Numbered from the stretch's first letter, positions 7,782 through 31,854 are shown. The stretch is DNA of 64,000 nt from Minisyncoccia bacterium (GCA_041485695.1 JBGPJZ010000002.1:1499-65498), one strand, 5' to 3'. The notes: a model not told the origin generated them from the sequence alone. Made by a program: numbers and translations.

Positions 7782-7782
7782 T

Positions 7783-15005: not shown

Positions 15006-15078
15006 AGCCGGGGGTCGGGATTGAACCGACGACCTAGGGTTTACGATACCCTCGCTCTACCAACTGAGCTACCCCGGC
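15006..15078 (-). tRNA. tRNA-Thr (anticodon CGT)
   Basis: Reverse complement GCCGGGGTAGCTCAGTTGGTAGAGCGAGGGTATCGTAAACCCTAGGTCGTCGGTTCAATCCCGACCCCCGGCT; canonical cloverleaf with anticodon loop ATCGTAA. Confidence 0.8.
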
Positions 15079-15086
15079 AAGCGAGT

Positions 15087-15110
15087 GAACATAGCAAAAT
15101 TAACATATTT
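15087..15110. repeat. 24-nt exact repeat GAACATAGCAAAATTAACATATTT, copy 1 (between the two tRNA-Thr genes)
   Basis: Identical 24-mer recurs at 16042-16065; both copies lie just upstream (minus-strand sense) of tRNA or tRNA-like genes. Confidence 0.7.
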
Positions 15111-15123
15111 GGTCGAAAACTGG

Positions 15124-15196
15124 AGCCGACGTCCGGGATTGAACCGGAGACCTCGTCCTTACCAAGGACGTGCTCTACCAACTGAGCTACGTCGGC
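15124..15196 (-). tRNA. tRNA-Thr (anticodon GGT), 3' CCA encoded
   Basis: Reverse complement GCCGACGTAGCTCAGTTGGTAGAGCACGTCCTTGGTAAGGACGAGGTCTCCGGTTCAATCCCGGACGTCGGCT followed by CCA. Confidence 0.8.
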
Positions 15197-15296
15197 GAAG
15201 CGAGGAAATGTGACTGCACATCCTCGTGTAGGCAAATTCTCCGAGCGAGCCTGCGTATGCCTACATACGTCGGCGTACGTCTATTTCTAACCTAAT

Positions 15297-15551
15297 TCAG
15301 CTATATTTCAAAATCCCGAAGACAATGGCGAAGTCGAGCGTAGCTAAGAGAAAGTTGGCGATAATGATGGGCTTGTCCTTATGTGCGATGCCATACACGA
15401 CCCACAAACTGTTAATCGCTCCGAGCATGAACCACGTTGAGATTGCGAGCCCAGCCGTGTCGTGCTTAAGGAACACTTGCGATGCTTGCGGCAAAAGCGC
15501 AAGGGGGGAGATGAGCGCAACCGCATAGATGACCTTATCTAAGAGGCGCAT
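15297..15551 (-). CDS. SemiSWEET/PQ-loop family small sugar transporter (putative)
   Basis: About 84 aa, three TM helices, with a PQ motif (ISPLALLPQASQVF) in helix 1. Start chosen at the internal Met MRLLDKVIY; the 113-aa track ORF has a non-hydrophobic leader. Confidence 0.5.
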   Translation of the reverse strand: MRLLDKVIYAVALISPLALLPQASQVFLKHDTAGLAISTWFMLGAINSLWVVYGIAHKDKPIIIANFLLATLDFAIVFGILKYS

Positions 15552-15792
15552 CCATGGGGTCCGCGCCGGGAAAGGCTCACATTTGGGAGCCGACTGCCGC
15601 TTTCGCAGCGATAAGTGATGCAATCCTCCTCCGTTCATTCTCTCCTAGTATACCCGATGCGCGAGGTGGGCAGGACATTTTTCGCAGTTTTTGCTAGGAT
15701 GCCCATAAGCGCTTGCGGTAGTAAGCCTGCGGACAGGCTTTCTCCCAGCGTTCATTCGCAATATAGAGCTTTGCTTCATATTGCTCATTCAC

Positions 15793-15866
15793 GCGGGAGT
15801 AGCTCAATTGGTTAGAGCGCCGCCCTGTCACGGCGGAGGTTGCGGGTTCAAGTCCCGTCTCTCGCG
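15793..15866 (+). tRNA. tRNA-Asp (anticodon GTC)
   Basis: GCGGGAGTAGCTCAATTGGTTAGAGCGCCGCCCTGTCACGGCGGAGGTTGCGGGTTCAAGTCCCGTCTCTCGCG; cloverleaf with anticodon loop CTGTCAC. Confidence 0.8.
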
Positions 15867-15882
15867 CACTATATTATTTTGG

Positions 15883-15954
15883 TGCCGGCGGGTGGAGTCG
15901 CGCCACCGTCTAGGGTTTATGAGTCCCTCGTTCTGACTCTTGAACTACACCGGC
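15883..15954 (-). tRNA. Atypical tRNA-like gene, anticodon CAT (Met/Ile2), CCA encoded
   Basis: Reverse complement GCCGGTGTAGTTCAAGAGTCAGAACGAGGGACTCATAAACCCTAGACGGTGGCGCGACTCCACCCGCCGGCA. It has a 7-bp acceptor stem, a 4-bp D stem and an anticodon loop CTCATAA. The D-loop lacks G18G19 and the T-loop reads CGCGACT instead of TTCRANY, so it may be a degenerate or pseudo-tRNA. Confidence 0.4.
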
Positions 15955-18488: not shown

Positions 18489-18498
18489 TTTCTACAGC

Positions 18499-18900
18499 AT
18501 GAAAAACAAACTTATCTTGGTTTTCTTTATCTTCTCTCTCATTGGTTTCGCAGTTGGATACTATTTGCTTAAAATCTACGACTGCGAATATAGCGTATTT
18601 TGCTACAATCTTGCAACAAGGGCCTTCGCTCTCTACTACGGAATGCCTGCTCTTGCTCTAGTCTTTTCCATGCTGCTCTTCATCCCACGTGCGCTTGATG
18701 CATGGAAGAAGTTTGCAATATGGTTTGTACCGCTTGCGGCTTTACTCTTTATTTTCTATCCAGAACCCGGCTCTGGTGACTTATTCTCGCCTTATCCCGA
18801 GCAAATCTTTCAATGGGTCAGTGCTCTATATGTCGTGGTAAGCGTCGTCATTATTGCGATTGTATCGTTACGTACATCAGAGCCGTTAACTAATCGGTAA
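18499..18900 (+). CDS. Membrane protein (3-4 TM), hypothetical
   Basis: 133 aa, hydrophobic, with a Cys-containing loop. Confidence 0.35.
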   Translation: MKNKLILVFFIFSLIGFAVGYYLLKIYDCEYSVFCYNLATRAFALYYGMPALALVFSMLLFIPRALDAWKKFAIWFVPLAALLFIFYPEPGSGDLFSPYPEQIFQWVSALYVVVSVVIIAIVSLRTSEPLTNR

Positions 18901-20481
18901 CTCAACGATGAAGCGAGAGCCTTTGCCAGGGCCGTCGCTTTCGGCCCAGATTGTGCCCCCATGCCCTTCAACGAGCTGTTTCGCGACGTAGAGCCCCAAG
19001 CCCGTACCGGTAGTGTTCACTTTGTTCGCGCCCCTGGCGCGCGTGAACTTCTCAAAGAGGCCACCTATCTCCTCCTTCGGGATGCCTATGCCGGTATCTA
19101 AAATAGTGACGCGCGCCTTACCGTTTTCGCCTTTTACGGCAACCGTCACGCGCCCCTTTTCGGTGTATTTGATGGCGTTATCGACGAGGTTTGAAATGAC
19201 TTGTTTTATCTTGCCTACGTCTGCAGTCACCTTGAGCGCATCGGATGTTTCAAGCGTGAGGGCAAGGCCGCGCCGCTCGGCCACAGGATGCAATTCTTCA
19301 ACCGTTTTTTTAGTCACATCGGCAAGGTCGAAACTGCTCTTTTCATACTTCATCCGCCCCTGTTCGATGCGCGAGATATTCAAATAATCCTCAATCGAGT
19401 TGGCCATGTTGCGTGCCGAGTCGTTAATGCGCGACAAGGGCTCACGCATCTTTTCTGACGTTTCGCCATAATCCCCCTGCAAGATAAGCGAGGCGTAGCC
19501 TCGTATCGCCGTAATCGGCGCTCGCAGTTGGTGTGAGGCAATCGACAAAAACTCACTTTTCGCCTGATCAAGCTCCTTTAATTTCTCGTTCGCAATCTCG
19601 AGATTGAAAGTATCTTGGACAATCTTGATGCTCCCCAAAAGGATGATGATGAAGGCGGCGATATTAATAGCTACCGCACTGACGTTTGTCGAGTATACGA
19701 TATTCACAAAACTGAACACGGTCACCATAAAACCTAGGAACGCCGTGGCTGCGACTTTCAAGTTAAATAAATGGTGGCGATAAATCGCATATGAAATAAG
19801 TGCAACGAACGGGAGAATAAATAGTGCGGCAAGAGGAATGAAGCTCACATTGGCAAATACATTTGGCAAAATCACGTTGAAATTAAGAATGAGAATGGCC
19901 ATGACCGTCATTCCTATGGATACAGCCGTAATCTGCCTGCGTTCAGATAACTCCATTGTCTCGCTTCTCTTTTTAAACAAGAAAACGATGCTCGCAATCA
20001 ATAGCCCAAAGGCAAGAAGCATGAAAAGGAGGACCCCAGGAGCAGGATCCGCCCGTGTTACCTGGCCAATGGGAGCAAGCGACGCGATACCTGAAAAGAC
20101 GAATGGTGTGAGCGTTAGGATAGCGACAGCCCCCACCGCGGGAACGAGAACCCACTTATACCAATGTGGGAACACTACTTTTTCTTTAGGAAATACGTAG
20201 GCGAACTGGAAAAAGATGAAGGCATATAAAGTCGAGAAAAAGAGATGGAACCTGAGCGCCCACAAAATGCCATTGACAGTAGTAAACCTGTATTCAAGAT
20301 AGTTGGAGATGCTCCAAATAACGGTAATGACTGCGAAAGCAAAAAAAGTCTGGTTGGTTATGCTGGTGCGATTATTAAAAAGGATAACCGCGCCAAGTAG
20401 CGTTATGCCAGCGATAGCTACACCGACGCTCAAAAGATCAAGATTTATCTGAACGAGCTGACTAACGCCAGAGATGCCCAT
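18886..20481 (-). CDS. Sensor histidine kinase with polytopic N-terminal membrane domain
   Basis: About 8 TM helices, then a HisKA H-box (SHQLRAPITAIRGY) and an HATPase_c domain with N-box NLVDNAIKYT, DTGIGIP and GTGLGL. Confidence 0.85.
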   Translation of the reverse strand: MGISGVSQLVQINLDLLSVGVAIAGITLLGAVILFNNRTSITNQTFFAFAVITVIWSISNYLEYRFTTVNGILWALRFHLFFSTLYAFIFFQFAYVFPKEKVVFPHWYKWVLVPAVGAVAILTLTPFVFSGIASLAPIGQVTRADPAPGVLLFMLLAFGLLIASIVFLFKKRSETMELSERRQITAVSIGMTVMAILILNFNVILPNVFANVSFIPLAALFILPFVALISYAIYRHHLFNLKVAATAFLGFMVTVFSFVNIVYSTNVSAVAINIAAFIIILLGSIKIVQDTFNLEIANEKLKELDQAKSEFLSIASHQLRAPITAIRGYASLILQGDYGETSEKMREPLSRINDSARNMANSIEDYLNISRIEQGRMKYEKSSFDLADVTKKTVEELHPVAERRGLALTLETSDALKVTADVGKIKQVISNLVDNAIKYTEKGRVTVAVKGENGKARVTILDTGIGIPKEEIGGLFEKFTRARGANKVNTTGTGLGLYVAKQLVEGHGGTIWAESDGPGKGSRFIVELPIS

Positions 20482-20483
20482 GG

Positions 20484-21416
20484 TTATTTATAATACTTCA
20501 AAAGATAGAACCCTGTCGTCCCATAAAAACTAATAACTCCACGACCCTTAGTATACTGGACGACATCTTTCTTACCGCGAAAGCGCAGATTTGAAAATAC
20601 CTCTCCATTGAGAAAATGGGGGTAGTTCCATCCAACAATGGCTTGAGGAAGCATAACTGGCCAGCTTTTATAGCCATCCAGTTCAATGTGCTGTTTAGCT
20701 ATCGTTTCGCAAGCTTGATCAAGTTTCTCTTGCTCCGGCAAATTAAGATGGTGACGAAAGAGAGAGTGGTAAACGAGGTCGAAATGCTTTGGTGGGAACT
20801 TGTTTGCGAGTTCAAATATATCGTTCGTGCACATGACGACAAGAATCTTCTTTTGTGATTTCTCTCGCATTCGTTTTAAATCTTCCGCGGTAATTTCACC
20901 GACCTCCACAATCTCTGCCTTTTCGGCGAATTCTTTCAAATTCTTATCCGCAATTTTGCGCGTTATCGAGGATTTATCTACGGCAACGATAGTCAGCGCG
21001 TGAGGATGATTTGTTTTGAGGGCCCATTCGATGACTTGCCTATCCACCTCCATGCCTCCTGCGCCGAGATCAGCAATTATAAGGTCTCGATTTTCGCTCT
21101 GAATGTATTCAGTAATTGCATTAACTAGTGGGGTTATGAGACCCGGATTTTTGCGTCTCTGCATCTCAATAAGCCGACTATGCATTTCTACATCCCATTC
21201 TTCGACCGGAAAGTCGGTGAGCTCAAGAAGTCGAGAGCCGTCGAGCTTTGGTGCTACGAAAAAGAGCCACCAGATATAGCCCGGCAAAGACCGCGCCGCG
21301 TTCAAAAAAACAATATTCGCATCTATCGCGTACTGCTGGTTCGCATAGACAGGGTCCTTTCTAAAAGACTCAAGTTTCTGAAGCGCCTGCTGTATCTGTC
21401 CAGTTCTGGCCGACAT
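20484..21416 (-). CDS. Hypothetical protein, possible SAM-dependent methyltransferase fold
   Basis: 310 aa, AT-rich coding sequence; LIIADLGAGGMEV resembles methyltransferase motif I. Weak evidence. Confidence 0.3.
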   Translation of the reverse strand: MSARTGQIQQALQKLESFRKDPVYANQQYAIDANIVFLNAARSLPGYIWWLFFVAPKLDGSRLLELTDFPVEEWDVEMHSRLIEMQRRKNPGLITPLVNAITEYIQSENRDLIIADLGAGGMEVDRQVIEWALKTNHPHALTIVAVDKSSITRKIADKNLKEFAEKAEIVEVGEITAEDLKRMREKSQKKILVVMCTNDIFELANKFPPKHFDLVYHSLFRHHLNLPEQEKLDQACETIAKQHIELDGYKSWPVMLPQAIVGWNYPHFLNGEVFSNLRFRGKKDVVQYTKGRGVISFYGTTGFYLLKYYK

Positions 21417-21592
21417 TTAGTAATTGTACCTCGAAGACAACTCTTGAAGAAGAGCGCCGTACAAAAAACCACTCCGGCCGTACCAAAAAAGCAGGTGTCA
21501 AGCCGAGTTATCCCCAGTGGGAGTTTACTTCCCTCTTACAATTGCCGGGAGTTTCTTCTACTCGATAGTAAGTTGACACCATAGATAGAGTA

Positions 21593-21874
21593 ATGCTAGA
21601 GTTGAACTGGGCCTTAAGGAGGTGGCCTAAAATGCGAGCGAAAAAGTTTAGTTTCTCAGTGCGTAACGAAGACTTCAAGTTCCCAGAATGTTCGAATCCC
21701 CTCTGCCTGGGTGGTTGCGTGCTGATCGCGATCAAACCAGAGGGTGTCGCTCTCCGTGACTCGAAGGACACGAAGGGACGAGAGACCACCATGTTCTTCA
21801 CGAATCTCGAGTGGGACCACTTTCTCAAGGGCGTCAGGAATGGCGAGTTCGAAATCGCCGGCACCGTCGACTAG
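21593..21874 (+). CDS. DUF397-domain protein
   Basis: C-terminal …GGCVLIAIKPEGVALRDSKDTKGRETTMFFTNLEWDHFLKGVRNGEFE matches the DUF397 consensus (CVEVA…VAVRDSKDP…f…EW.aFl.gvk.GEFD). Confidence 0.5.
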   Translation: MLELNWALRRWPKMRAKKFSFSVRNEDFKFPECSNPLCLGGCVLIAIKPEGVALRDSKDTKGRETTMFFTNLEWDHFLKGVRNGEFEIAGTVD

Positions 21875-21919
21875 AAGTGATCCCACATGACGACATTCAT
21901 CGTCATGCTGTAGACTTAG

Positions 21920-21956
21920 GTGAGGGCGGACAGCAAATCCGCCCTCACTTTTTATA
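21920..21956 (+). terminator. Intrinsic terminator after the DUF397 gene
   Basis: GTGAGGGCGGA-cagcaaa-TCCGCCCTCAC (11-bp perfect stem) followed by TTTTTATAAT. A second 8-bp hairpin (CATGACGA…TCGTCATG) lies at 21886-21907. Confidence 0.7.
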
Positions 21957-22403
21957 ATGACAAAACCACTATTTATTCATGGGTTAGGCGAACAAGCGAG
22001 CAACTACCGAGCTCTCTCGCGTTCTTTTGATCTATACAATATCGACTGGAATCGACCGCTCACGAATCAAGTTGCAAAAATCCCTAAAAAATATGACACC
22101 ATTATTGGTTTTAGTTGGGGTGCAGTTGCCGCCTGTTTTTACGCGGGACAATTCCCAGTGAAATTCCTTATCTTGTGTTCTATGCCCTCAGGGGCGGACG
22201 CTGCTTACATGGCAAATTTGAAAGCTGAAAAAGTGATTTTTCTGTTTGGCCAGAAAGAGAAGTGGCCAGCGAAGGACAACCGCCGGATTACGAAGCAAAT
22301 GAAAAAGCAGTTCACTCGTCAGATTATTGTGGCGAACGAAGGGCATAGAATAACTAAGCCTTACCTTAAAACTATTTTAGAAACCATTAAGGATGTAGCT
22401 TGA
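21957..22403 (+). CDS. Small alpha/beta-hydrolase-fold protein
   Basis: 148 aa; LFIHGLG, nucleophile-elbow-like GFSWGA, C-terminal EGH. Confidence 0.45.
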   Translation: MTKPLFIHGLGEQASNYRALSRSFDLYNIDWNRPLTNQVAKIPKKYDTIIGFSWGAVAACFYAGQFPVKFLILCSMPSGADAAYMANLKAEKVIFLFGQKEKWPAKDNRRITKQMKKQFTRQIIVANEGHRITKPYLKTILETIKDVA

Positions 22404-22427
22404 TTCTAGCTAATCGACGCAAGTATT

Positions 22428-23810
22428 ATGAATCACGAAAGACCTACAACACCATCGCTACCCGCAGAGAAAGAAAGAGATACTATCATTGAAGAAGCGG
22501 GTGCCGCCGAGAGTAGAGTAAGCAGTGCTGCCGAACAGCAAGTCGAAAAATCGAGCGCGCAGCATTCTGAACACAACGATTATGGTCTTTTAGATCACGC
22601 GAAATATCGTGATCGAATGTTGCCTGAACTTATTGAGAATAAAGAGCTAGATCTGAACGGGAATGATTTAGAGATAGTCAGGGAGTACCTTACCAAGCAA
22701 GATCCCGCCTTTGTAGCCGATTTGAGATTAATGATAGGAGGTCAGAAAGCTATGAGTATGGGGGTTGAAACAGTCATTACAATTCCCTCTTATCAAGAAG
22801 GGAGAAATTTGGAAAAGACTCTGCGGAATTATGCAAAATTGAACAATAGAAATGGTTTTGAGATCGTAATTTTGGAGAATCATCCAGAAGGCGTTAAGCG
22901 AGATAATTCTGCTGATATTATCGACAGCGTTAGGAAAGAATTTCCGGATCTTAATATCGTTCATCTCTACAAAGTTTTCAAAGAGAAACCGGCCATTGGC
23001 GGAGTTCGTAAATATCTGGTTGACGCCGTGCTATTAAGAAAATCAGAAAGTAATATAGAGAAGTCGATTGTTATTGTAAGCAACGACGCAGATCTAGAAG
23101 ACATCAGCGAGGATTACGCAAATCAATTGAGCGCGGCGTTCCAGAAAAATAAGAATGTGGATGCAATTGAAGGAAAGCGGGATTACCCAGCCGAGACCTA
23201 TAGAAAGTACCCACTACTGCATGCGAGCCAACGCCTATGGAATTATCTTGATATTGCATTCAAAAAATACCATTTAAAGACAGAAGAATTGACCGGAACC
23301 AACAGTGCATTTCGCTCCGGTATCTATGCGGCGATTGGCGGATACAACGAGAAAGCGCAGCTCGCCGAAGACTGGGAACTCGGTCAATTAATCAAGGAGG
23401 CGCGAGGGGGTGACTCCGAGCGCATCAAGCATCTTAACTCAACATGGCTTATTTCGAATCCGCGACGGGCTGTTGTGACCATGCTTTCTGGTCGTAACTT
23501 GATTCAGCAACACGAGGATTTCCATGTAAATGAGGAGGTGCGCAAAACCTCAGTAGAAGACTTGTTACGAGAAAAGCGAGATCTAGATGAGAAGGAATTT
23601 ACTAATGAGGTTCAGGCCACGTATGAGCATTGTGCAAGATGGAAGAAATCAAAAGGAGGATCGGCTGACGATGAATACATCAACAAGTCTTTTGACCGTG
23701 CAATGCGATTCCTGGGCGTAAATTATGAGATTGTGAATGATAAAGTCATAATTTCGGATATAGCGCGTCTTAGAGAAGGGTTAAGGAAATATGAATTAAA
23801 GAATTCTTAG
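22428..23810 (+). CDS. Family-2 glycosyltransferase with ~100-aa disordered N-terminal region
   Basis: GT-A core VITIPSYQEGRNLEKTL…FEIVILENH and DxD-like SNDADLED; AT-rich codon usage. Confidence 0.55.
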   Translation: MNHERPTTPSLPAEKERDTIIEEAGAAESRVSSAAEQQVEKSSAQHSEHNDYGLLDHAKYRDRMLPELIENKELDLNGNDLEIVREYLTKQDPAFVADLRLMIGGQKAMSMGVETVITIPSYQEGRNLEKTLRNYAKLNNRNGFEIVILENHPEGVKRDNSADIIDSVRKEFPDLNIVHLYKVFKEKPAIGGVRKYLVDAVLLRKSESNIEKSIVIVSNDADLEDISEDYANQLSAAFQKNKNVDAIEGKRDYPAETYRKYPLLHASQRLWNYLDIAFKKYHLKTEELTGTNSAFRSGIYAAIGGYNEKAQLAEDWELGQLIKEARGGDSERIKHLNSTWLISNPRRAVVTMLSGRNLIQQHEDFHVNEEVRKTSVEDLLREKRDLDEKEFTNEVQATYEHCARWKKSKGGSADDEYINKSFDRAMRFLGVNYEIVNDKVIISDIARLREGLRKYELKNS

Positions 23811-23822
23811 GGGTAAAAGGTG

Positions 23823-24902
23823 TTAGGAATCTTTCTTGGGTCTAATCGTCACAGTGTCCACAAGCGGGAAGCGGACGGCCTGTGCTGAAGGCGGCTCGCC
23901 CTTGCCGACACGAAACATGAATGCGAGGTGACGATCTCCCGCTTTGAAGATATCTACGGCTACTTGGTACGCACTTAGAATCGTGTCTTTTTCTTTTGTT
24001 GAAAAGTCGCTACCCTCCCCTCCTTTAATTTTGAGCTTGAAAAAGAGTACACCCGTCATCGGTTGAAATGAGAGGCCAAGCGAGGTCGCGATGAGCCAGA
24101 GCCGCTCTACTGCGCGGCCTACTTTTACAAAATCGATTGGCTCTGTCCCGCTAACCGTGAGGCCGCCGATAGCACTCGCGGCCGCATTCGTCACCCCGTT
24201 TTGAATAGCCACGACTCGATTGAAACCGAGGACTAAGAACAGGCGCATGATGCCCCACTTCTTAAAAAGCCTAAACATTATCTGTGCGGGTGGCGGTAAC
24301 TCGAGCGTCTTGATATAAAAACCGATTTTCTTTTTGTCATCCTCTTCTTTTGTCCAATTTATATGACTAAAGAAAAAGCTGTGGAGCGACTGGTTCGCAA
24401 GCATGACCTCTTCGTTCGTCGAACCGACGCGCCCCAGGCACCTAATATCTTCAGGAGCCTCTACGAGCGTCAAAGCACCTTGCCCGGCGGCCATAAGTGC
24501 CTGTCGCGCTTCGCTCGAAAGAGGCTCCTTACCGTACGGCTTACGATTTGAGACGCGCTTAAAAATAAAGAATGTAAGTGGGTCGGGCTTTACGGTCGAA
24601 TCTTTTGTAAGAGTGAGCGTCGCAACATGGTACTTGTCAGTTGAGTTGGGGAAGTATGCGACATCTACTCGATACCCCTTGCCGCTTGCGGCAATAATCA
24701 TATTTTCTATTGCGGCACCATTAGCGAGATAGGAGCCCCTTTGACCCCAACCGTAGGCAGATTGATCTCGCTCTGGTAGTACATGAACTTCGACAGTGTT
24801 GGCCAACACGACAAAATGCCAGGGCTGACAATTCTCCCCCGAGGGGGCCTGACTCCCCGCCACCAGAATGCGTTCAAGCTCCTGGGAGAGGCCAGAGATC
24901 AT
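23823..24902 (-). CDS. Nitroreductase-fold (SagB/McbC-type dehydrogenase-like) protein, apparent tandem two-domain form
   Basis: N-terminal APSGENCQPWHFVV (canonical nitroreductase FMN-binding motif); a second RxSNRKPY-type start near residue 115; 359 aa is long for the fold. Confidence 0.65.
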   Translation of the reverse strand: MISGLSQELERILVAGSQAPSGENCQPWHFVVLANTVEVHVLPERDQSAYGWGQRGSYLANGAAIENMIIAASGKGYRVDVAYFPNSTDKYHVATLTLTKDSTVKPDPLTFFIFKRVSNRKPYGKEPLSSEARQALMAAGQGALTLVEAPEDIRCLGRVGSTNEEVMLANQSLHSFFFSHINWTKEEDDKKKIGFYIKTLELPPPAQIMFRLFKKWGIMRLFLVLGFNRVVAIQNGVTNAAASAIGGLTVSGTEPIDFVKVGRAVERLWLIATSLGLSFQPMTGVLFFKLKIKGGEGSDFSTKEKDTILSAYQVAVDIFKAGDRHLAFMFRVGKGEPPSAQAVRFPLVDTVTIRPKKDS

Positions 24903-26083
24903 AGGCCGAATATTTTGGCAAAGTCTGCAGCAACTTGCTTGCGATGCGCTACTGATTCTGGACTGTTGTAGTCGGGAACGAGTTTCTCGTCCATAGATAT
25001 GAGTGCGCGATTGGCTTCAAGTGGCTGGCCATTCAAAATTTTGCGTGCACAATAGGCGACCGCCACACCGTTAATCATGGCGGCACCACCTAGTTGAGGC
25101 CACGACACTATGGTCTTGCCCATTTCTTTAAGTGAGTTTTGCATTCGCTCGGTAACGTTCTCTGGGGCCACGTGCTTCGTGATCATCTTGCCGATGCCAA
25201 ATTTATCTAAATTCTTTAACATGTCGTACGAAACTTCACCCATGCGTCCGTGGAAAAACGGCATGTCTGGCTCAAGGTCGTAACGCTCGATGTCGACTAC
25301 TGCATTGTCGCCATTATCTGCCGCCATAAGAACGGGGATGTGGTGCTTTTTTGCCTGTTCACGAATCAAATATTTCACCGCGAGATTGTCGAGCTCGTCG
25401 ATAACAATGTCGAGGTCGCTACAAAATGCCTCTATGTTTTCTGGATTTAACCCTTCTGAGTGTAGTTCGACTTCTGCGTATGGGTTGAGCTCATAAATCG
25501 TACGTGCTGCAATCTCAACCTTAAGTACGCCGAGCCGATCTGCGCCAGCGAGGATACGGTTCGTATTCGTAAGCGCCAGCCTGTCCATATCGGCGAGTTT
25601 CAAGCGCTTCCCTCCCCCCTGCAAAACAATTGCAAACGCTACTGAAGAGCCGACCGAGAGGCCACCGATACCTATAGTCGCGTTATAAAATTTCTCTTGC
25701 TCCCCTTTCGTAATCAGGTTCTCATTACGTGCCGTACGCACAAGCTGAAACTCCTCTTCAGGCAGGATATGCGTCGCTAAATACCGCCAGGGGAAGTAGG
25801 CCCAGCGACCGTCTTGCCAAAGCGGCTTCTGCGCAGAAAGGGTCTTGAAGTATGTCGCAAATTCCTCTTTAAACGTCGGGGTGTAGACGTGCGAAGGGTT
25901 GCGAATGCCAAAAAGCTCGAGCTGTTGCTCTTCGTAATCGTCTGATATCTGCTTGATTGCACCCGAGGCAATGAGCTCCTCAAAGCGGGTGCGGTCTGCC
26001 TCTAGAGATAGATCAAGGATGACTGGGACGGAGGCGGTGGAGGCCTCCTTTAGCTTGTTTAATTTCCCTTCAAGAGAGTCCAT
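24899..26083 (-). CDS. ThiF/MoeB/HesA (E1-like) adenylyltransferase-family protein with ~130-aa N-terminal extension
   Basis: Nucleotide-binding GIGGLSVGSSVA and ADMDRLALTNTNR (E1 D-x-D…NR signature). Translationally coupled to the nitroreductase gene (4-nt overlap). Confidence 0.7.
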   Translation of the reverse strand: MDSLEGKLNKLKEASTASVPVILDLSLEADRTRFEELIASGAIKQISDDYEEQQLELFGIRNPSHVYTPTFKEEFATYFKTLSAQKPLWQDGRWAYFPWRYLATHILPEEEFQLVRTARNENLITKGEQEKFYNATIGIGGLSVGSSVAFAIVLQGGGKRLKLADMDRLALTNTNRILAGADRLGVLKVEIAARTIYELNPYAEVELHSEGLNPENIEAFCSDLDIVIDELDNLAVKYLIREQAKKHHIPVLMAADNGDNAVVDIERYDLEPDMPFFHGRMGEVSYDMLKNLDKFGIGKMITKHVAPENVTERMQNSLKEMGKTIVSWPQLGGAAMINGVAVAYCARKILNGQPLEANRALISMDEKLVPDYNSPESVAHRKQVAADFAKIFGL

Positions 26084-26111
26084 ACCCCCATATTACCACC
26101 ACCCCCTGTAG

Positions 26112-27683
26112 CTATTCTTTTGAGCGAATGACCCACTTTTGCTTAATGCCTGGGTGGAAATATTTCGGGTGCTCGTGGGGCCAAAACGTGATTTTCGGGA
26201 TAACCTTCTCACCCATTGCGCTCAAATTGTTCTGGTACTCGGCACTATTACGTGCAAGGCTTTCGACGACCGCAGCGACAACTGTTTTTTTCAAGTCATC
26301 GGTAGCCTCTTGCTTTGCTTGAAGCTCTATATTGAGTTCAAGATACTCGTTGTGCTTCGAGTCATGTTCGGTCGTCATCGTGAAGCGGCCAGTGATAGAG
26401 CGTTCGAGCTCTGACTTTTGGAGCCCGATTTTTACATGCTCAGGAAAAATGATGGCGCCGTAGAGCTTAACCGAGAGGTCCGAGCGTTCATACACATATA
26501 CAAAGGGGAGCTGGTGCACTGTCTCTGCGATACCGGCGCGTTTAATCTCTGCCCCAAGATTAATGCCGGCATCTTTAGCTGCCTCTTGTACCTCAGTAAA
26601 AGTAAACACCCCACCTTGATCCCCGATGTCGTAGCGAATAAAGGGCAACACGGTACCATCGGTCGCGTAGATGCGACCATCTTCGCTTTCTTCAAACGAA
26701 ACGAAGCTCGGGATGTATTGCGCAAGGGTCGGGAGCCGATGCGCCTCCTTAAAAATCTTGCGATAGAAGGTGTCGTTCTTGAGTGCGAGGCGGCGTACGA
26801 GTATCGAGAGCGGCGTCTCGGTCGCCATAGTACCGAGCTCCGCACTCCCGTAGATGTTCATGACACTGCGGTACGGATCCTTGGCCCCTGTCTTTTGCAT
26901 CAAATAATCACGGAAATGTTCTGAAAATGCCTCTGCAGCACAGACGATGCGGACATCCCACCGCTTCCATTCCACACCGAACAACGGGCCATCATCAATA
27001 AGATCCTTCATAAAGGGCGGGTAGCCGCAGAGTATGAGCTGATCGTACGAGGGCGCGATGTGCGTAAGAGCCTCGAAAATCTCCTTTTTATTAACGCCCG
27101 GGGTAATAACCGTGAGCGGGCGGCCGTCTTTAGAGATTCGGCGGAATGCCTCGTAGGTCAAAAGCCCCCCTATCCACACGCCCATGCCAAAACAAACGAC
27201 CACCAAGGTCGACTTTTTTGGGTCAAGACCGCTCCGCTCTACGAACAGGCGGTGGTAGAGCATTGACTGCTCATGTACGTCATCAGTGCGCGGGATGTAG
27301 AACGGCTGACCAGTTGAACCAGAGGTGGAGGTCATCACGAGAGGTTCATGAGTGAGAGCTCCCGCTACACAAAGCTTATCCCACGGATGCACGCGCAAAT
27401 AATTTGTTTTAGAAGTGGGTGGAATCTTCTGTAAATCTTTAACGGTACGTATCTCCGTGCCATCGACGCCCATCTGCCCCAAGAATTTCCGATAGCCTGG
27501 TACGTTTTTGAAAGCGTTTTTGAAATGCTTGATTATTGCTGCGTTTTGAACGCGTACCCAATCAGCACTGTCGTTCATGGTCAATTCTGCAAGAAAAGCT
27601 GCAGGGGTTGACACTTCCCGCTTCGCTACCTTGGTTTTATGCGCCACCGGGCGAGTTTTCATTGAAAACGAACTATACCACAC
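26112..27683 (-). CDS. Adenylate-forming enzyme of the PaaK / coenzyme F390 synthetase / LuxE-like family
   Basis: TSGSTGQPFYIPR (ANL P-loop-like motif), overall PaaK-like length and order. True start possibly at internal Met MNDSADW. Confidence 0.6.
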   Translation of the reverse strand: MWYSSFSMKTRPVAHKTKVAKREVSTPAAFLAELTMNDSADWVRVQNAAIIKHFKNAFKNVPGYRKFLGQMGVDGTEIRTVKDLQKIPPTSKTNYLRVHPWDKLCVAGALTHEPLVMTSTSGSTGQPFYIPRTDDVHEQSMLYHRLFVERSGLDPKKSTLVVVCFGMGVWIGGLLTYEAFRRISKDGRPLTVITPGVNKKEIFEALTHIAPSYDQLILCGYPPFMKDLIDDGPLFGVEWKRWDVRIVCAAEAFSEHFRDYLMQKTGAKDPYRSVMNIYGSAELGTMATETPLSILVRRLALKNDTFYRKIFKEAHRLPTLAQYIPSFVSFEESEDGRIYATDGTVLPFIRYDIGDQGGVFTFTEVQEAAKDAGINLGAEIKRAGIAETVHQLPFVYVYERSDLSVKLYGAIIFPEHVKIGLQKSELERSITGRFTMTTEHDSKHNEYLELNIELQAKQEATDDLKKTVVAAVVESLARNSAEYQNNLSAMGEKVIPKITFWPHEHPKYFHPGIKQKWVIRSKE

Positions 27684-27741
27684 GCCTCTATATTAAGCAA
27701 GCACCACAAAAAGGTTATCCCCACCCCCTTGTAAAGAAAAA

Positions 27742-27765
27742 CGGAGGCCCAATTATGGGCCTCCG
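27742..27765 (-). promoter_or_regulatory. Leader hairpin with U-tract (terminator-like) upstream of the PaaK-like gene
   Basis: CGGAGGCCCA-atta-TGGGCCTCCG (10-bp perfect stem). On the minus strand it is followed by TTTTTCTTT and lies about 60 nt 5' of the start codon. Confidence 0.4.
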
Positions 27766-27925
27766 CCAGAGATGAGACCAAAATCAAGGGTTTTGACTAT
27801 CGACGAGACTACTATAAGGCATGTAAAAAAGCAAGTTTGGATAATCGGAACAAAATGCTATGCTCGCGGGAAGTGTCCTTTGACGAAATTTTTCGTCTGT
27901 CGCTCAAACAAAGAGGATCTAAGAA

Positions 27926-28526: not shown

Positions 28527-29585
28527 ATGAAAACGCTCTATACTGAGCAGATGGCTGTCCCACAAAGAATCTTCGTAGCAATCGCCTTGGCGGGGCTCCT
28601 TGCCCTGCCCTTTTCGGCCATGGCGGCAACGAAAACATCAGCCTACCACCCTGTACGCTTGTTTTATTATACCGACGGCAAGGTAGCGAAAAAAGATTTC
28701 TTCGCGCACGCAAGCTCAATCGACATCTTCGCGCCGCAGATATACCAGATCGAGCCTGACGGCACCCTAAGCGGCACCCTAAACCAAGACCTCATCGACT
28801 TCGCTAAAAAACACAAGATTAAGATCATGCCGCTCGTAACGAATGACGGTTTTAGCTCAAAGGGCCATGAAGCGCTCCTTGAAAGCACCTCGACACAAGC
28901 GCTTGCCTTAAATGCTCTCGTCACTGAAGCCAGAAATAAAGGCTATGCCGGGTGGCAGTTCGACTTTGAGCAGATGGATGCGAGCTACCGCGACAAATTC
29001 TCGACGTTTATTACGCGTGCGGCCGAAGCTTTTAAGCAAGCGGGACTTACCTTAAGTGTCGCGGTTGTGGCCAAGACCTCTGATAACCCGAGCGATTACC
29101 CGAACGACCTCTGGCAAAAGCTCATCGGCGCGTACGACTATGATGCCCTCGCGAAGAGCGCCGATTTCATAAGCGTGATGAGCTACGACGACCCGACCTC
29201 GCACGGCCCCTCCGTACAGTTTGCTTGGTTACAAAAAGTCCTTACCTACTCGCTTGCGCATATACCAAAAGAGAAGTTGTCTCTCGGTCTCGCCCTCTAC
29301 TACTGGGCGCGAGATACGGCGACCGGCAAGCTTATCGGCATCGGCGGTAATGAGACCATCGATAGGATTTTCGCCAAACGGAAGGTCGTCGTTACCTATG
29401 ACACCGTCAACAGGATGCCGGTCTTGCATTACCAGGCCGACGGTACGCTCTACTCGCTCTGGTATGAGAACGCGCGAAGCATCAAAGAAAAACTCGCGCT
29501 TGTTAAAACGAACAAGCTCTATGGCTTTTCAGCATGGTCGCTTGGTCTCGGAGTACCAAGCGTCTACAGTACGCTACGCAATTAA
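28527..29585 (+). CDS. Secreted glycoside hydrolase family 18-like protein (chitinase/YaaH-like)
   Basis: Signal-like hydrophobic segment; GH18 catalytic-motif variant GWQFDFEQ (DxxDxDxE); overall (beta/alpha)8 length. Confidence 0.6.
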   Translation: MKTLYTEQMAVPQRIFVAIALAGLLALPFSAMAATKTSAYHPVRLFYYTDGKVAKKDFFAHASSIDIFAPQIYQIEPDGTLSGTLNQDLIDFAKKHKIKIMPLVTNDGFSSKGHEALLESTSTQALALNALVTEARNKGYAGWQFDFEQMDASYRDKFSTFITRAAEAFKQAGLTLSVAVVAKTSDNPSDYPNDLWQKLIGAYDYDALAKSADFISVMSYDDPTSHGPSVQFAWLQKVLTYSLAHIPKEKLSLGLALYYWARDTATGKLIGIGGNETIDRIFAKRKVVVTYDTVNRMPVLHYQADGTLYSLWYENARSIKEKLALVKTNKLYGFSAWSLGLGVPSVYSTLRN

Positions 29586-31108
29586 ACAAAACCCGGGAAA
29601 AAGTCTGTTTTGATGTGGCGCTTCGGAATATCCATGTCGGCGAGGATTTCCTCAAATGCGGTAACCATGCCGTGGGGGCCGGAGAGGTAGAAGGTGCACT
29701 CTGCAAAATCAGGCACTTCCCTCTTAATGACGCCAGCCGTAATCGCCGGCACTGCGCTCGGAAGTTCTTGCGGCACGGCGCCCGGGTCAGTAAACGCGTA
29801 CACTGTCTTTATGCCGAGCTTCTCCTTGGCAAGAGCCAGCATCTGGTGATACGCGACGTCAGCGGGCGTCTTATTCGCATAAAAAAGCGTAATGGGACGA
29901 ACTTCTTGGGTATCTAAGAGATATTGTATTTGGCTCCGAAAGGGAGTAATGCCGATGCCGCCTGCGATAAAGACGAGCTTCTTCTTTATATCTTTGGGCA
30001 GGACGAAGTTTCCGCCTAGTTGAGAGGCGATGATGGTGTCGCCCGGCTTCATGGTGAGCAGACGTTTTTTAAAGGTGCTCCCGTTTTGGTAAAACTTTAC
30101 GCCGAGCCGTAATTCGTGCTCGGTGGGAGACGACGCTATCGTAAAGAAACGCCGGATGCCGCGCGTGTCGGGCCACGCATGAGCTAGTGTCCATTCGAGA
30201 TACTGCCCTGGTTTAAATAAGAGCGGTTTTTCGCTTGTGAATACTAAGTCGAACGTGTCTCGGGTAAGACGTGCCCGCCCTTTCAAGGTCAAAATGAGTT
30301 TGCGCTTAGGGCTTACGAGGTACGAAAAGGCGTTGCCGACCAGGAGCGCAAGCTCGGGGGTTGAGTAGATCGACCCGAGGTGCACAAACGGCGCGAAGAG
30401 GAAGCCAACCAACCCGCCATAGGTTATGCGGAGCAACTTTGAGGGCGGCGTGGTAAAGGGCTCGGTAAGCATCACCGATGCAAAGAAAATTAAGGGCGCA
30501 GTGACAAGGCCGCTGTTGAGGGAGGCGAGAACATTCCCGCCGACGCTTACCGCGCGAGCCATGATACTGATAAGCGCGACGATGAAGAATGCCCAAAAGA
30601 GATCGAGCCGTCGCATCTTATGGATAACGAGGAAGCCGCCGACGATGACGAACGGCAGCATGACCCCTGTGCCGACCCACCAGCTCGCTCCGAGGCCGAG
30701 CGCGAGCGAGGTTGCCGCAACACCGAATGCCGCCGGATTAAAGAGGTGTTTTTTGCCGATGGCAAGGATATATTTCGACCCCGTCGAGAGAGCCGCCGCC
30801 CATCCGGCAAGAATCAAAAATCGAGCATCGACGTACGAAGAGGGCGGCGCAATGATGAGCGCCAAAATGAGAGCGGTGATATAGAGAGATTCTGGGTTCG
30901 AAGGTGCTCTAAATGCCCACGCGAAGGCTTTGTTAACTACCCACGAGACAGCAAGCAGGTAGACGATCGAAAGCGCGAGGAACTGCGGTAAGAAAGGGAG
31001 CTGACCGAAATACGAGAGGGACTCGGCAACGATAAGTAAAAAGATCAGCTCGTATAAGGCGAGCCGATACATCGTGATTCTATCGACGACGGAATCAATC
31101 CATTTCAT
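29582..31108 (-). CDS. Membrane-bound oxidoreductase: polytopic N-terminal domain fused to ferredoxin-NADP+ reductase-like FAD/NAD(P)-binding domain
   Basis: About 8 TM helices (residues 1-260) then the FNR signatures RRFFTIASS (RxYS-type FAD site), GGNFVLP and GGIGITP (NAD(P) site). Confidence 0.6.
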   Translation of the reverse strand: MKWIDSVVDRITMYRLALYELIFLLIVAESLSYFGQLPFLPQFLALSIVYLLAVSWVVNKAFAWAFRAPSNPESLYITALILALIIAPPSSYVDARFLILAGWAAALSTGSKYILAIGKKHLFNPAAFGVAATSLALGLGASWWVGTGVMLPFVIVGGFLVIHKMRRLDLFWAFFIVALISIMARAVSVGGNVLASLNSGLVTAPLIFFASVMLTEPFTTPPSKLLRITYGGLVGFLFAPFVHLGSIYSTPELALLVGNAFSYLVSPKRKLILTLKGRARLTRDTFDLVFTSEKPLLFKPGQYLEWTLAHAWPDTRGIRRFFTIASSPTEHELRLGVKFYQNGSTFKKRLLTMKPGDTIIASQLGGNFVLPKDIKKKLVFIAGGIGITPFRSQIQYLLDTQEVRPITLFYANKTPADVAYHQMLALAKEKLGIKTVYAFTDPGAVPQELPSAVPAITAGVIKREVPDFAECTFYLSGPHGMVTAFEEILADMDIPKRHIKTDFFPGFV

Positions 31109-31854
31109 GCTGTGCGGGTATACGCATCAAAACCGCTCGTCATGGTAGCAATCCCTTGTGGGTCGATAGCGTACGCTTCAAAGCCAGGAAGCCGTTCGAG
31201 AAACTCGAGCCCTTTCATCCCCATGGCAAACGCGGCGGTTGCAAATCGGTCCGCCTCAAGCACATCAGGGCCGATGACCGTAAGGCTCACGATGTCGTCT
31301 ATAACAGCGTTGGGGGCATGCGGGTCGTAGATATGCTGGCCGCGAATATAGGTGCCCGAGGTGGCTACCCCTGAACCTCGCGGATAGATGACTTTCACGA
31401 TTTGATCTCGATTGAACGGGTTCCGAATGCCGACGTTCCACTCCTCACCCTCGGCATTCTTGCCATTTGAAGCGATGTCGCCGCCCGCATCGACATAAAA
31501 ATCTTCAAACCCCCGTAAACGCAACATCTCGGCGGCGTTCAGTATCGCCCAACCCTTCACCACGCCCGAGGGGTCGAGCGTGCCATCAGATTTTTTGATA
31601 TCAAAGTAACCACCGGTTTCTTTTTTTGTCTTCTCTGCTAGTTTGAAAATCTCTCGCATGTCGTCACTGCACTCCTCCTTCACAAGCTCGCCCCGGTTAA
31701 TTCGCATGATTTCGCTCTCGGGTTTGTAGGTGCTGAACCGCTTATCAACTGCGATAAAATATGAAAAGACTTCTTCTAGGCCCTCTTCGGTCGCCAACGC
31801 ATCCGCAATGTCGACCGTGATGGGCATGCCCATGATGTCTTTCGTGGCGCGCAT
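31105..31854 (-). CDS. apbE: FAD:protein FMN transferase (ApbE family)
   Basis: ApbE signatures VKGWAI, YVDAGGDIASNG and ATSGTYIRGQHIYDP; overlaps the downstream oxidoreductase gene by 4 nt. Confidence 0.8.
   Translation of the reverse strand: MRATKDIMGMPITVDIADALATEEGLEEVFSYFIAVDKRFSTYKPESEIMRINRGELVKEECSDDMREIFKLAEKTKKETGGYFDIKKSDGTLDPSGVVKGWAILNAAEMLRLRGFEDFYVDAGGDIASNGKNAEGEEWNVGIRNPFNRDQIVKVIYPRGSGVATSGTYIRGQHIYDPHAPNAVIDDIVSLTVIGPDVLEADRFATAAFAMGMKGLEFLERLPGFEAYAIDPQGIATMTSGFDAYTRTA

Follow-up and report, generated by a model that had tools for sequence, protein, structure and literature searches.

The closest described counterparts of the present locus are the systems TrzS, OxzB and TyzBC, whose substrates are free N-acyl amino acids and whose products are oxazolones (PMC12856293, PMC10404671). 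In TrzAS of Mycobacterium tuberculosis and M. smegmatis (Rv1356c/Rv1355c), which makes N-acyl tryptazolones, TrzS (Rv1355c) converts N-acyl-Trp to tryptazolone by an ATP-dependent cyclisation and an O2-dependent desaturation (PMC12856293). The corresponding steps on N-acyl-Tyr are carried out by TyzB/TyzC and by OxzB (PMC10404671; bioRxiv 10.1101/2020.06.11.147165). The TyzACB operon of M. tuberculosis (Rv2336-Rv2338c; N-acyl tyrazolones) encodes the cyclase TyzB and the flavin-dependent oxidase (FDO) TyzC as split proteins, together with TyzA, an acyltransferase of AHL-synthase fold that uses lauroyl-CoA, and no ANL enzyme (PMC10404671). OxzAB of Pseudoalteromonas rubra applies a pair of ThiF and nitroreductase-fold proteins to N-acyl aromatic amino acids (de Rond et al., bioRxiv 10.1101/2020.06.11.147165), and a matching pair occurs in the NasY/ThiF/nitroreductase clusters of the stieleriacines, thalassotalic acids and kyonggic acids, sometimes with a methyltransferase alongside, as in Stieleria (PMC12479983). 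Both OxzAB and the NasY clusters use fatty acyl donors, through an N-acyl amino acid synthase, and contain neither an ANL enzyme nor an upstream deaminase or sensor kinase. Every described oxazolone cluster has an adjacent acyltransferase (PMC12856293).

The three-gene cassette described here is probably the oxazolone (azlactone) pathway of OxzAB, TyzACB and TrzAS in a split form of CPR type, a reading that rests on the homology, motifs, synteny and fusions presented below. Its new element is an adenylate-forming enzyme of the ANL superfamily in the place that an N-acyltransferase takes in all oxazolone clusters described; TrzAS, for example, has a TrzA-type acyl-CoA:amino acid N-acyltransferase there. 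The hosts also differ, TrzAS being mycobacterial whereas the present module belongs to a CPR bacterium and is linked to a 7TM kinase.

Organization of the locus and of related loci

The window, i.e. the whole 64-kb stretch of DNA analysed, carries the three co-directional genes on its minus strand. A PaaK-like ANL adenylate-forming enzyme (26112-27662, 516 aa) is followed by a ThiF/E1-like protein (24899-26083, 394 aa) and a tandem nitroreductase-fold FDO (23823-24902, 359 aa). The ANL reading frame can also start at a GTG at 27683 (26112-27683, minus strand, 523 aa) or at an ATG at 27577; an identical database protein begins at the ATG at 27662 (516 aa). ORF calling and domain searches bear out the reading frames and coordinates of the first-pass annotation, and Pfam and NCBIfam agree with its nitroreductase, ThiF and adenylating-enzyme identities. 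The translational coupling that it proposed is seen in the sequence itself, the ThiF stop codon TGA overlapping the FDO start codon ATG in a 4-nt ATGA (in ...CCTATGATC...), and the ANL and ThiF genes are spaced by 28 nt with a GGGGG ribosome-binding site. Its placement of the trio within an AT-richer block holds in part: an AT-rich region at 17-24 kb (GC 0.46) adjoins, but the trio itself has a GC content of 0.50-0.51 against 0.53 for the window.

The ANL enzyme is carried by at least 586 species genomes, and synteny was compared among the best 80 ANL loci, each from a different species and all from Patescibacteria, with flanks of +/-8 kb (some counts are over 78 loci). ThiF is adjacent to ANL in 79 of the 80 loci, a link tighter than that of any other pair; the FDO is present in 61/78 and all three genes in about 60/78. 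This arrangement is far beyond chance, and the first-pass annotation, which would have fallen had the trio not co-occurred elsewhere, stands in this respect. Gene orders are permuted among the loci while the gene set is kept, and the operon occurs in hundreds of ultrasmall (CPR/Patescibacteria) genomes, usually beside a membrane sensor kinase. In 46/78 loci an amino-acid-deaminating enzyme lies just upstream of ANL, a slot in which three unrelated types alternate: a ScyB-like amino-acid dehydrogenase, a HisC-like or branched-chain aminotransferase, and an MIO aromatic ammonia-lyase. The 64-kb window holds no such upstream deaminase, which counts against the reading. Single-protein fusions of ANL with ThiF (P0347) and of ThiF with MIO lyase (P0277) also exist. 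Because the FDO is absent from the examined flank in about a fifth of the loci, two of which (L003 and L060) have the kinase directly after ThiF, ANL and ThiF may have a function independent of desaturation. Five ThiF-FDO fusions sampled outside CPR showed no ANL neighbour (0/5), and four of the five adjoin a protein without a Pfam match.

A HisKA_7TM sensor histidine kinase with Pfam HisKA_7TM, HisKA and HATPase_c matches (18886-20481, minus strand) and, directly upstream of it, a 310-aa methyltransferase-like protein (20484-21416, minus strand; weak Methyltransf_11 match, 21.4 bits) are also encoded in the window. Between this pair and the FDO lies a low-GC (about 0.43) interruption with opposite-strand genes (21417-23822, plus strand), including a 148-aa FSH1-like fragment (21957-22403, plus strand) and a GT2 glycosyltransferase (22428-23810, plus strand). 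The 7TM kinase is present in 51 of the 78 related loci, with its family on the same strand and directly after the FDO in 51/78; in L087 it shows 38% identity over 545 aa and follows a fused ThiF-FDO protein. The methyltransferase-like family stands between FDO and kinase in 6-7 loci and is thus a conserved optional member, and in L088 a different, UbiE-type methyltransferase takes this position. Since the relatives show the order ANL, ThiF, FDO, optional methyltransferase and kinase without the segment at 21417-23822, the latter lies outside the module; it splits the FDO from the methyltransferase-kinase pair. The kinase is part of a module conserved in relatives, and is here parted from the trio by insertion. 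A single-domain response regulator is sometimes included in the operon.

Relatedness of the three enzymes

The ThiF domain recognised by Pfam occupies residues 122-255 of the ThiF-like protein, and its Rossmann core, from about residue 122, is preceded by a family-specific N-terminal domain (residues 1-120; 25724-26083, minus strand). The N-terminal extension noticed earlier is hence present, with a length of ~120 rather than ~130 aa. In NCBIfam the protein matches the 'Rv1355c family protein' model (NF005901) over positions 4-347 with 327 bits (E 2e-97), the next-best family reaching only 74 bits. The FDO, in which Pfam finds Nitroreductase in two stretches, matches positions 375-719 of NF005901 with 178 bits. 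The two halves of TrzS are full-length homologues of ThiF and FDO, with the N-terminal extension shared, the ATP motifs kept and the FMN motifs apparently kept; TrzS is fused, whereas two translationally coupled genes are found here, split as in the TyzACB operon. TyzB has 318 aa and therefore no room for a ~120-aa N-terminal domain. By these alignments the extension belongs to the Rv1355c/TrzS family and is common to enzymes acting on small molecules.

ThiF-FDO fusions make up 58 of the best 150 representatives at 50% identity, aligned from about query residue 15; ThiF is 36-50% identical to such fusions, some of which lie above the family cut-off, and the concatenated ThiF and FDO of the window are collinear, end to end, with fusions that pass it. 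The glycine loop, DxD..SNxNR, the (D/E)ExD(N/D) adenylation motif and the RxSNR of the FDO are kept across this alignment. Homologues of ThiF show no variation in GIGGLSVGS, ADMDRLALTNTNR and IDELDN, which also align with the fusions, and the Asp of the adenylation motif is probably equivalent to D217 of TrzS, as judged from the alignment region. The FDO shares its RxSNR motif (R116-R120) and Q280 with the fusions, Q280 probably standing in the column of TrzS Q651; R540 and Q651 of TrzS are needed for FMN and activity (PMC12856293). These likenesses suggest that ThiF may act as an ATP-dependent cyclase, equivalent to the N-terminal half of TrzS/OxzB and to TyzB, and the FDO as a C-alpha/C-beta desaturase, equivalent to the C-terminal half of TrzS/OxzB and to TyzC.

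Some features of the flavoenzyme count against the oxazolone reading. The uncharacterised family PRK14851 (203 bits) outscores Rv1355c for the FDO, and an Asn replaces the Arg that most fusions have in a conserved (L/I)RW motif; the known FDOs, moreover, are O2-dependent. In keeping with the FDO subgroup of the nitroreductase superfamily, the Acg family scores 130 bits, and Acg (2YMV) is the best PDB match. A housekeeping enzyme of NfsA/NfsB type, with which the first-pass annotation would have failed, is not indicated, as models of this type match over ~30 residues only (E>=6e-4).

The ANL enzyme gives a weak AMP-binding match in Pfam, and in NCBIfam 51 bits to PaaK (cut-off 646) and 36 bits to FlxY. 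Its catalytic motifs are intact, as evident from the P-loop TSTSGSTGxPFYxPR, YGSAELG, RYxIGD and the C-terminal Lys in GIKQKWV, all invariant in 25 homologues. The best structural matches of its AF2 model (pLDDT 82) are PaaK1/2, BT_0428 and ClxA, with HCL also included. By fold and motifs the enzyme falls into the PaaK-like clade of ANL enzymes, yet it is not PaaK itself: an assignment as phenylacetate-CoA ligase (TIGR02155) was rejected on the score below cut-off and on the neighbouring ThiF and FDO, with no paa genes. ClxA and NatL2 form an ester or amide from an acyl-adenylate without CoA in benzoxazole biosynthesis, the substrates of ClxA being aminohydroxybenzoates, with a different downstream enzyme. 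The fold is common to the present enzyme and ClxA (PDB 9S45/9S3L), at a sequence identity of about 17-18%. In flexirubin biosynthesis, FlxA/FlxY (NF053541/NF053551) combine a tyrosine ammonia-lyase with a PaaK-like ligase activating the deaminated acid, which mirrors the lyase and ANL of relatives; the lyase of L087/L088 matches FlxA with 583 bits, and the ANL enzymes are weak FlxY matches. FlxY, however, feeds a polyketide pathway without ThiF or FDO and has low identity to ANL. The trio as a whole, an ANL enzyme with ThiF and FDO of oxazolone type, lies outside the described cluster types, as originally supposed.

Alternative explanations

The first-pass annotation had leaned towards azoline/azole RiPP or MccB-like chemistry, in which the N-terminal domain of the E1-like protein would bind a leader and, with FDO and ANL, modify a ribosomal peptide or protein C-terminus. 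This is very improbable, since ThiF, including its extension, and the FDO match the two halves of the Rv1355c/TrzS model; a SagB/SagC-type pairing finds no TIGR03605 or ocin-ThiF-like match in NCBIfam at E<=0.1. For the ThiF N-terminus as a candidate RRE, the Pfam scan gave no PqqD/RRE match, a profile of this domain found nothing in PDB, and its predicted order (alpha-beta-alpha-beta-alpha-alpha-beta-beta-alpha) differs from the beta3-alpha3 of PqqD-type RREs. Neither a free-standing small ORF nor a YcaO-like family is conserved in the 80 loci, in line with the absence of precursor peptide and YcaO noted before. Another early suggestion, a cofactor or thiocarboxylate pathway, would have the E1-like protein adenylate a ThiS/MoaD-like protein, as ThiF/MoeB do, with ANL and FDO acting on a cofactor precursor. 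Rv1355c was historically annotated 'MoeY', and the Rossmann core has a generic ThiF/MoeB similarity of 60-74 bits, but both cut-offs are missed by far (MoeB 74 vs 449; ThiF 67 vs 275), the protein has two Cys only and lacks both a CxxC zinc motif and a rhodanese domain, and ORFs with a terminal GG and a length of 55-110 aa, as expected of a Ubl gene, occur in only 11/80 loci, which is the chance level; this reading is scarcely credible. Among PDB entries, the tRNA t6A dehydratase TcdA/CsdL is closest in sequence to the ThiF core (E 2e-11); this enzyme, itself ThiF-like, cyclises its N-carbamoyl amino acid substrate via an adenylate (PMC12596934). TcdA acts on tRNA, without an N-terminal domain or FDO partner, and with the NCBIfam TcdA model the present protein reaches a score of 48, the cut-off being 304. 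An anti-phage E1-E2/Cap2 system was also rejected, PADLOC giving a 44-bit match to the E1 core only and none for the partners.

The remaining alternatives concern the ANL enzyme. It is rather unlikely, though worth weighing, that it is a true acyl-CoA ligase (for an aryl-acetate, aryl-acrylate or 2-oxo-acid) that supplies an unlinked OxzA/TyzA-like N-acyltransferase; the oxazolone class would then be unchanged, but ANL would be no substitute for the acyltransferase. Its closest structures PaaK1/2, BT_0428 and HCL are indeed CoA ligases, and FlxY is thought, by its NCBIfam name, to make coumaroyl-CoA. On the other hand, PaaK-like enzymes such as ClxA transfer acyl groups without CoA, the small genomes of CPR bacteria often encode no CoA-dependent lipid metabolism, and the tight ANL-ThiF pairing with its fusion protein also disfavours such a ligase. 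Among the 80 CPR loci, no conserved acyltransferase family turned up within +/-8 kb, none adjoins the trio in the window, and described clusters keep one adjacent (PMC12856293). A different heterocycle is highly unlikely: ANL would join two amino-acid-derived units and ThiF would cyclise them using not the amide oxygen but another nucleophile, e.g. an amine, to a diketopiperazine- or pyrazinone-like ring that the nitroreductase-fold oxidase would desaturate as cyclic dipeptide oxidases do. Two ATP-dependent carboxylate activations and a nitroreductase-fold dehydrogenase fit this on paper, and both building blocks seem amino-acid-derived; however, the lyase, dehydrogenase and transaminase strip the amine that such a ring needs, and the homology is specific to the oxazolone-forming family.

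Proposed pathway and signalling

In the oxazolone pathway, the ANL enzyme is proposed as an ATP-dependent N-acyl-amino-acid ligase in place of the OxzA/TyzA/TrzA acyltransferase; we infer amide rather than CoA-thioester formation, as well as the substrates and every chemical step, from sequence comparison. The enzyme would adenylate a carboxylic acid and use it to acylate a free amino acid at the alpha-amino group; the resulting N-acyl amino acid would require neither acyl-CoA nor a GNAT-type N-acyl amino acid synthase. In relatives the acid would probably come from the deaminating enzyme encoded just upstream of ANL, which would yield an arylpyruvate, some other 2-oxo acid or a coumarate-like compound. 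The ThiF-like protein would then adenylate this N-acyl amino acid at its carboxylate, attack by the amide oxygen yielding a 5(4H)-oxazolone and AMP, and the FMN-dependent tandem-nitroreductase oxidase would desaturate C-alpha/C-beta to a conjugated 4-ylidene-oxazolone, which could hydrolyse to an N-acyl-dehydroamino acid. The methyltransferase-like protein may tailor the product, and the co-transcribed 7TM histidine kinase would tie the pathway to signalling.

A more speculative view, to which we give only a small chance, is that the operon forms a self-contained CPR/Patescibacteria signalling circuit of deaminase, ANL, ThiF, FDO, 7TM kinase and sometimes a response regulator. If this is true, an oxazolone or N-acyl-dehydroamino acid would be built wholly from scavenged amino acids by a CoA-independent route, and the 7TM kinase would sense the product, an autoinducer or else a cue passing between episymbiont and host.

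Gene layout and family identity of the ThiF and FDO proteins

The three minus-strand genes of the first-pass annotation were found at the places claimed for them. They encode a tandem nitroreductase-fold protein (FDO; 23823-24902, 359 aa), an E1-like ThiF protein (24899-26083, 394 aa) and a PaaK-like ANL enzyme (26112-27683, 523 aa, GTG start), for which an identical database protein begins at the ATG at 27662 (516 aa). Pfam and NCBIfam gave the same domain identities, namely a two-lobed nitroreductase fold, a ThiF domain and a weak PaaK-like ANL match, and the 4-nt ThiF/FDO overlap was also confirmed, as the stop of the former and the start of the latter share ATGA. ANL and ThiF are spaced by 28 nt, with a GGGGG Shine-Dalgarno sequence. 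The placement of the cassette inside an AT-richer block held only in part: the GC content of the three genes is 0.50-0.51 as compared to 0.53 for the window, but a strongly AT-rich region (0.46; 17-24 kb) does adjoin them. A strong terminator-like hairpin occupies 27740-27767 (minus strand) in the 263-nt AT-rich intergenic region, 78 nt ahead of the ANL gene. Its 12-bp stem includes 8 GC pairs and is followed by a T-run, and Rfam gave no match to it; the hairpin could terminate a small or antisense transcript coming from upstream, or serve as an operon leader or attenuator. In the window as a whole, Rfam recognized tRNAs alone, and the surroundings of the cassette matched no known riboswitch.

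NCBIfam analysis revealed that ThiF matches NF005901 ('Rv1355c family protein', a 722-position equivalog model) over positions 4-347 with 327 bits (E 2e-97), as compared to 74 bits for the second-best family, MoeB. FDO covers the C-terminal half of NF005901 (positions 375-719) with 178 bits, and it matches PRK14851, a related uncharacterised fusion family, with 203 bits and the Acg family with 130 bits. Rv1355c is the enzyme named TrzS. TrzS acts on N-acyl-tryptophan, which it first cyclises in an ATP-dependent step and then desaturates with O2 to give an N-acyl tryptazolone (PMC12856293). The split TyzB/TyzC and the fused OxzB carry out the same conversion on N-acyl-tyrosine (PMC10404671; bioRxiv 10.1101/2020.06.11.147165; review PMC12596934). 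When 1.84 billion representatives were searched exhaustively with HMMER, 923 clusters were recovered at E<1e-30; ThiF-FDO fusions of 700-790 aa account for 58 of the 150 best representatives, and four of the scanned fusions pass the Rv1355c-family cut-off. The concatenated ThiF and FDO of the window align collinearly with these fusions, and the glycine loop, the DxD...SNxNR and (D/E)ExD(N/D) adenylation motifs and the FDO motifs APSxxNxQPW and RxSNR are kept in both. For the M. smegmatis TrzS residues D217, R540 and Q651, numbering carried over from family representatives proved unreliable, and the correspondence is given here at the level of motifs. The family similarity suggests that ThiF and FDO are likely an oxazolone-type cyclase and desaturase acting on a small molecule.

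The first-pass annotation had considered peptide-modifying (azoline/azole) machinery, in which the N-terminal extension of the E1-like protein would recognize a leader peptide. The extension is indeed present at about 120 aa (the ThiF domain begins at residue 122 in Pfam/NCBIfam), but it is a trait of the family of small-molecule oxazolone synthetases rather than a locus-specific addition, because the window proteins align with the ThiF-FDO fusions from about residue 15 of ThiF. Pfam and NCBIfam gave no PqqD/RRE match in ThiF or FDO, a profile of the N-terminal domain matched nothing in the PDB, and the domain cannot be used as evidence of a peptide substrate. The SagB-type and ocin-ThiF-like models of NCBIfam matched neither protein. 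Across 80 related loci, each recurrent small ORF proved to be the antisense shadow of a large gene, and GG-ending ORFs of 55-110 aa occurred at chance level (11 of 80 loci). Cysteine occurs twice in ThiF, and CxxC pairs are absent. Other assignments were also rejected: models of the housekeeping nitroreductases NfsA/NfsB cover only a stretch of about 30 residues of FDO, ThiF scores 48 bits against the TcdA cut-off of 304, and PADLOC returned only weak E1-core similarity for a defence system.

Conserved gene neighbourhood and the proposed role of ANL

Scanning one genome per GTDB species revealed ANL relatives in at least 586 species genomes. The best 80 of these are all Patescibacteria (CPR), among them Kaiserbacteria, Paceibacterota, Nomurabacteria, Uhrbacteria, Doudnabacteria, Magasanikbacteria, Gracilibacteria and others; the window proteins are 67-83% identical to the best database sequences (Kaiserbacteria, Parcubacteria, Minisyncoccota), which makes a CPR origin of the window almost certain. 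ThiF adjoins ANL in 79 of the 80 loci by tblastn, the lone exception being at a contig end. When all ORFs of the related loci were clustered and 78 loci scored, ThiF was recorded in 72, FDO in 61, a HisKA_7TM histidine kinase in 51 and a receiver-only response regulator in 21. An amino-acid-deaminating enzyme lies immediately 5' of ANL in 46 of these 78 loci: an ELFV dehydrogenase (30 loci; best match the tryptophan dehydrogenase ScyB, 280 bits), a HisC-like aminotransferase (13) or a class-IV aminotransferase (4). The most frequent order (25 loci) is deaminase, ANL, ThiF, FDO, kinase, and the permuted orders F-D-A-T-H, D-A-F-T-H and F-T-D-A-H (genes by their initials, H for histidine kinase) retain the identical gene set.

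In two CPR loci with fused ThiF-FDO (L087, L088), the upstream slot is occupied by an FlxA-like aromatic ammonia-lyase of the MIO type (583 bits), followed by an ANL homologue (31-33% identity), the fusion, and then a 7TM kinase of the same family or a methyltransferase. Two representatives of 50%-identity protein clusters are Rosetta-stone fusions: P0347 joins ANL (24-500, with 39% identity to that of the window) to ThiF (513-861), and P0277 joins a ThiF cyclase (7-375) to an MIO ammonia-lyase/aminomutase (397-918) that passes the Tyr 2,3-aminomutase and HAL-subfamily cut-offs. In locus L015, a 90-aa ORF immediately 5' of ANL (7713-7985; MKNLNQIRKKIDGIDGNIVKLIAKRF...) resembles, as judged by eye, a type II chorismate mutase, which would again point to aromatic 2-oxo-acid supply.

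The simplest reading is that ANL acts on a deaminated acid, since three unrelated deaminase types alternate in one slot with ANL after each, and since an ammonia-lyase can supply nothing else. ANL would adenylate the acid left after deamination, either an aryl-acrylate or a 2-oxo acid, and acylate a second, intact amino acid with it; ThiF would adenylate the carboxylate of the resulting N-acyl amino acid and close the oxazolone, and FDO would add the exocyclic double bond. An ATP-dependent ligase would thus stand in place of the acyl-CoA-dependent N-acyltransferase of described oxazolone clusters. Drawn entirely from homology, motifs, synteny and fusions, this scheme of ligation, cyclisation and desaturation appears fairly probable as a whole. 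CPR organisms often have scant lipid or CoA metabolism, and a CoA-independent ligase route would suit them.

ANL keeps the P-loop TSTSGSTGxPFYxPR, YGSA(E/D)LG, the RYxIGD hinge and the invariant C-terminal Lys in GIKQKWV, as do 25 homologues. The structures nearest to its AlphaFold model (pLDDT 82) are PaaK1/PaaK2, BT_0428, ClxA and 2-hydroxyisobutyryl-CoA ligase, and McbA is also among the matches; against the PaaK equivalog, ANL scores 51 bits with a cut-off of 646. The main rival explanation, that ANL is a CoA ligase supplying an unlinked acyltransferase, is considered unlikely. Certain ANL-fold enzymes, namely ClxA/NatL2, GH3 and McbA, are able to halt at the adenylate and acylate a non-CoA nucleophile, and on balance we lean towards direct amide formation by ANL. 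In a neighbour-joining tree, lyase-linked ANLs form a deep separate clade and the window ANL falls within a mostly aminotransferase-linked one; this fits a specificity of ANL that tracks the deaminase, with shared ancestry as an alternative account. In L003/L004/L060 and L036, the 7TM kinase immediately follows ThiF and the fetched flank has no flavoenzyme gene, so ANL and ThiF may be functional without the desaturase, or FDO may be encoded elsewhere.

The window locus and the kinase linkage

In the window, a low-GC segment (about 0.43, 2.4 kb; 21417-23822) follows FDO, carrying opposite-strand genes for a 148-aa FSH1-like hydrolase fragment and a 460-aa GT2 glycosyltransferase. After it come a methyltransferase-like gene (20484-21416) and a 7TM kinase (18886-20481), both on the minus strand. 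Five relatives (L016, L018, L020, L047, L078) show the uninterrupted order ANL, ThiF, FDO, methyltransferase, kinase, and because they keep the last three contiguous, the segment looks like an insertion splitting the module. No homologue of the deaminases (dehydrogenase, aminotransferase, lyase) was found within the 64-kb window, the sole match of that search being an unlinked response regulator (44147-44527).

At 21573-21950 (plus strand), a good sigma-70-like promoter (TTGACA-18-TAGAGT, with TG upstream) and a strong terminator with a stem of 13 bp lie about 350 nt apart; the only ORF there (93 aa, 21593-21874) begins ahead of the expected transcription start, and the stretch is a candidate small gene or small RNA. 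Four tRNA genes (15006-15954) lie just ahead of the region where the window is richest in AT (17000-24000, 0.46 GC); this region starts in an LCAT-like lipase gene (16092-18488) or past its end. GC is also low at 50-58 kb (0.49), and these blocks may be foreign-DNA islands. At 29582-31854 (minus strand), an ApbE flavin transferase adjoins an NQR2/RnfD-like membrane domain fused to FAD/NAD-binding (FNR-like) domains; ApbE is also found a few genes 5' of the ANL operon in L003/L004 and L005.

Rv1355c-family fusions outside CPR (Algoriphagus, Myxococcota, Chloroflexota, others) are accompanied by ANL in none of five loci, and in four of the five the immediate neighbour is a protein of 228-570 aa without Pfam match, probably the usual acyltransferase. 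Kinase linkage was observed in one of the five, that of Algoriphagus sp. (Bacteroidota; L089, 6001-12142), where the genes after the fusion encode a 228-aa protein without family match, a 7TMR-DISM kinase and a hybrid response regulator/kinase, and an additional response regulator lies upstream of the fusion. Here, outside CPR, a homologue of the oxazolone synthetases is linked to 7TM sensing. The kinase could serve in product sensing or in operon control. In L027-L029, L031 and L062, the kinase or kinase/regulator pair occurs in tandem copies after the operon (HK-RR-HK-RR or three kinases).

Significance

To our knowledge, every described oxazolone pathway has an acyl-CoA-dependent N-acyltransferase. 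Our literature search returned no description of an ANL-ThiF-nitroreductase cluster and no paper linking CPR bacteria to oxazolones or ThiF/nitroreductase pairs. The kind of the ThiF/FDO pair is already known; what is new is that an ANL gene is present instead of an acyltransferase gene, that a deaminase gene leads the operon, that a kinase is linked to it and that it is spread across CPR. The locus suggests a second, ATP-driven, CoA-independent route to N-acyl amino acids, and since the acyl donors are probably amino-acid-derived, the products are likely to be new.

Patescibacteria have genomes of about 1 Mb, and specialised metabolism is thought to be nearly absent from them; the operon is kept in at least several hundred of their species. 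Oxazolone natural products were discovered only in 2021, and what they do physiologically is still an open question (PMC12856293). A 7TM sensor kinase that gene order predicts to be often co-transcribed with the operon would offer a concrete handle on this function. Thousands of MAGs contain genes that now carry the labels 'phenylacetate-CoA ligase', 'ThiF family adenylyltransferase' or 'nitroreductase', and these could be re-annotated.
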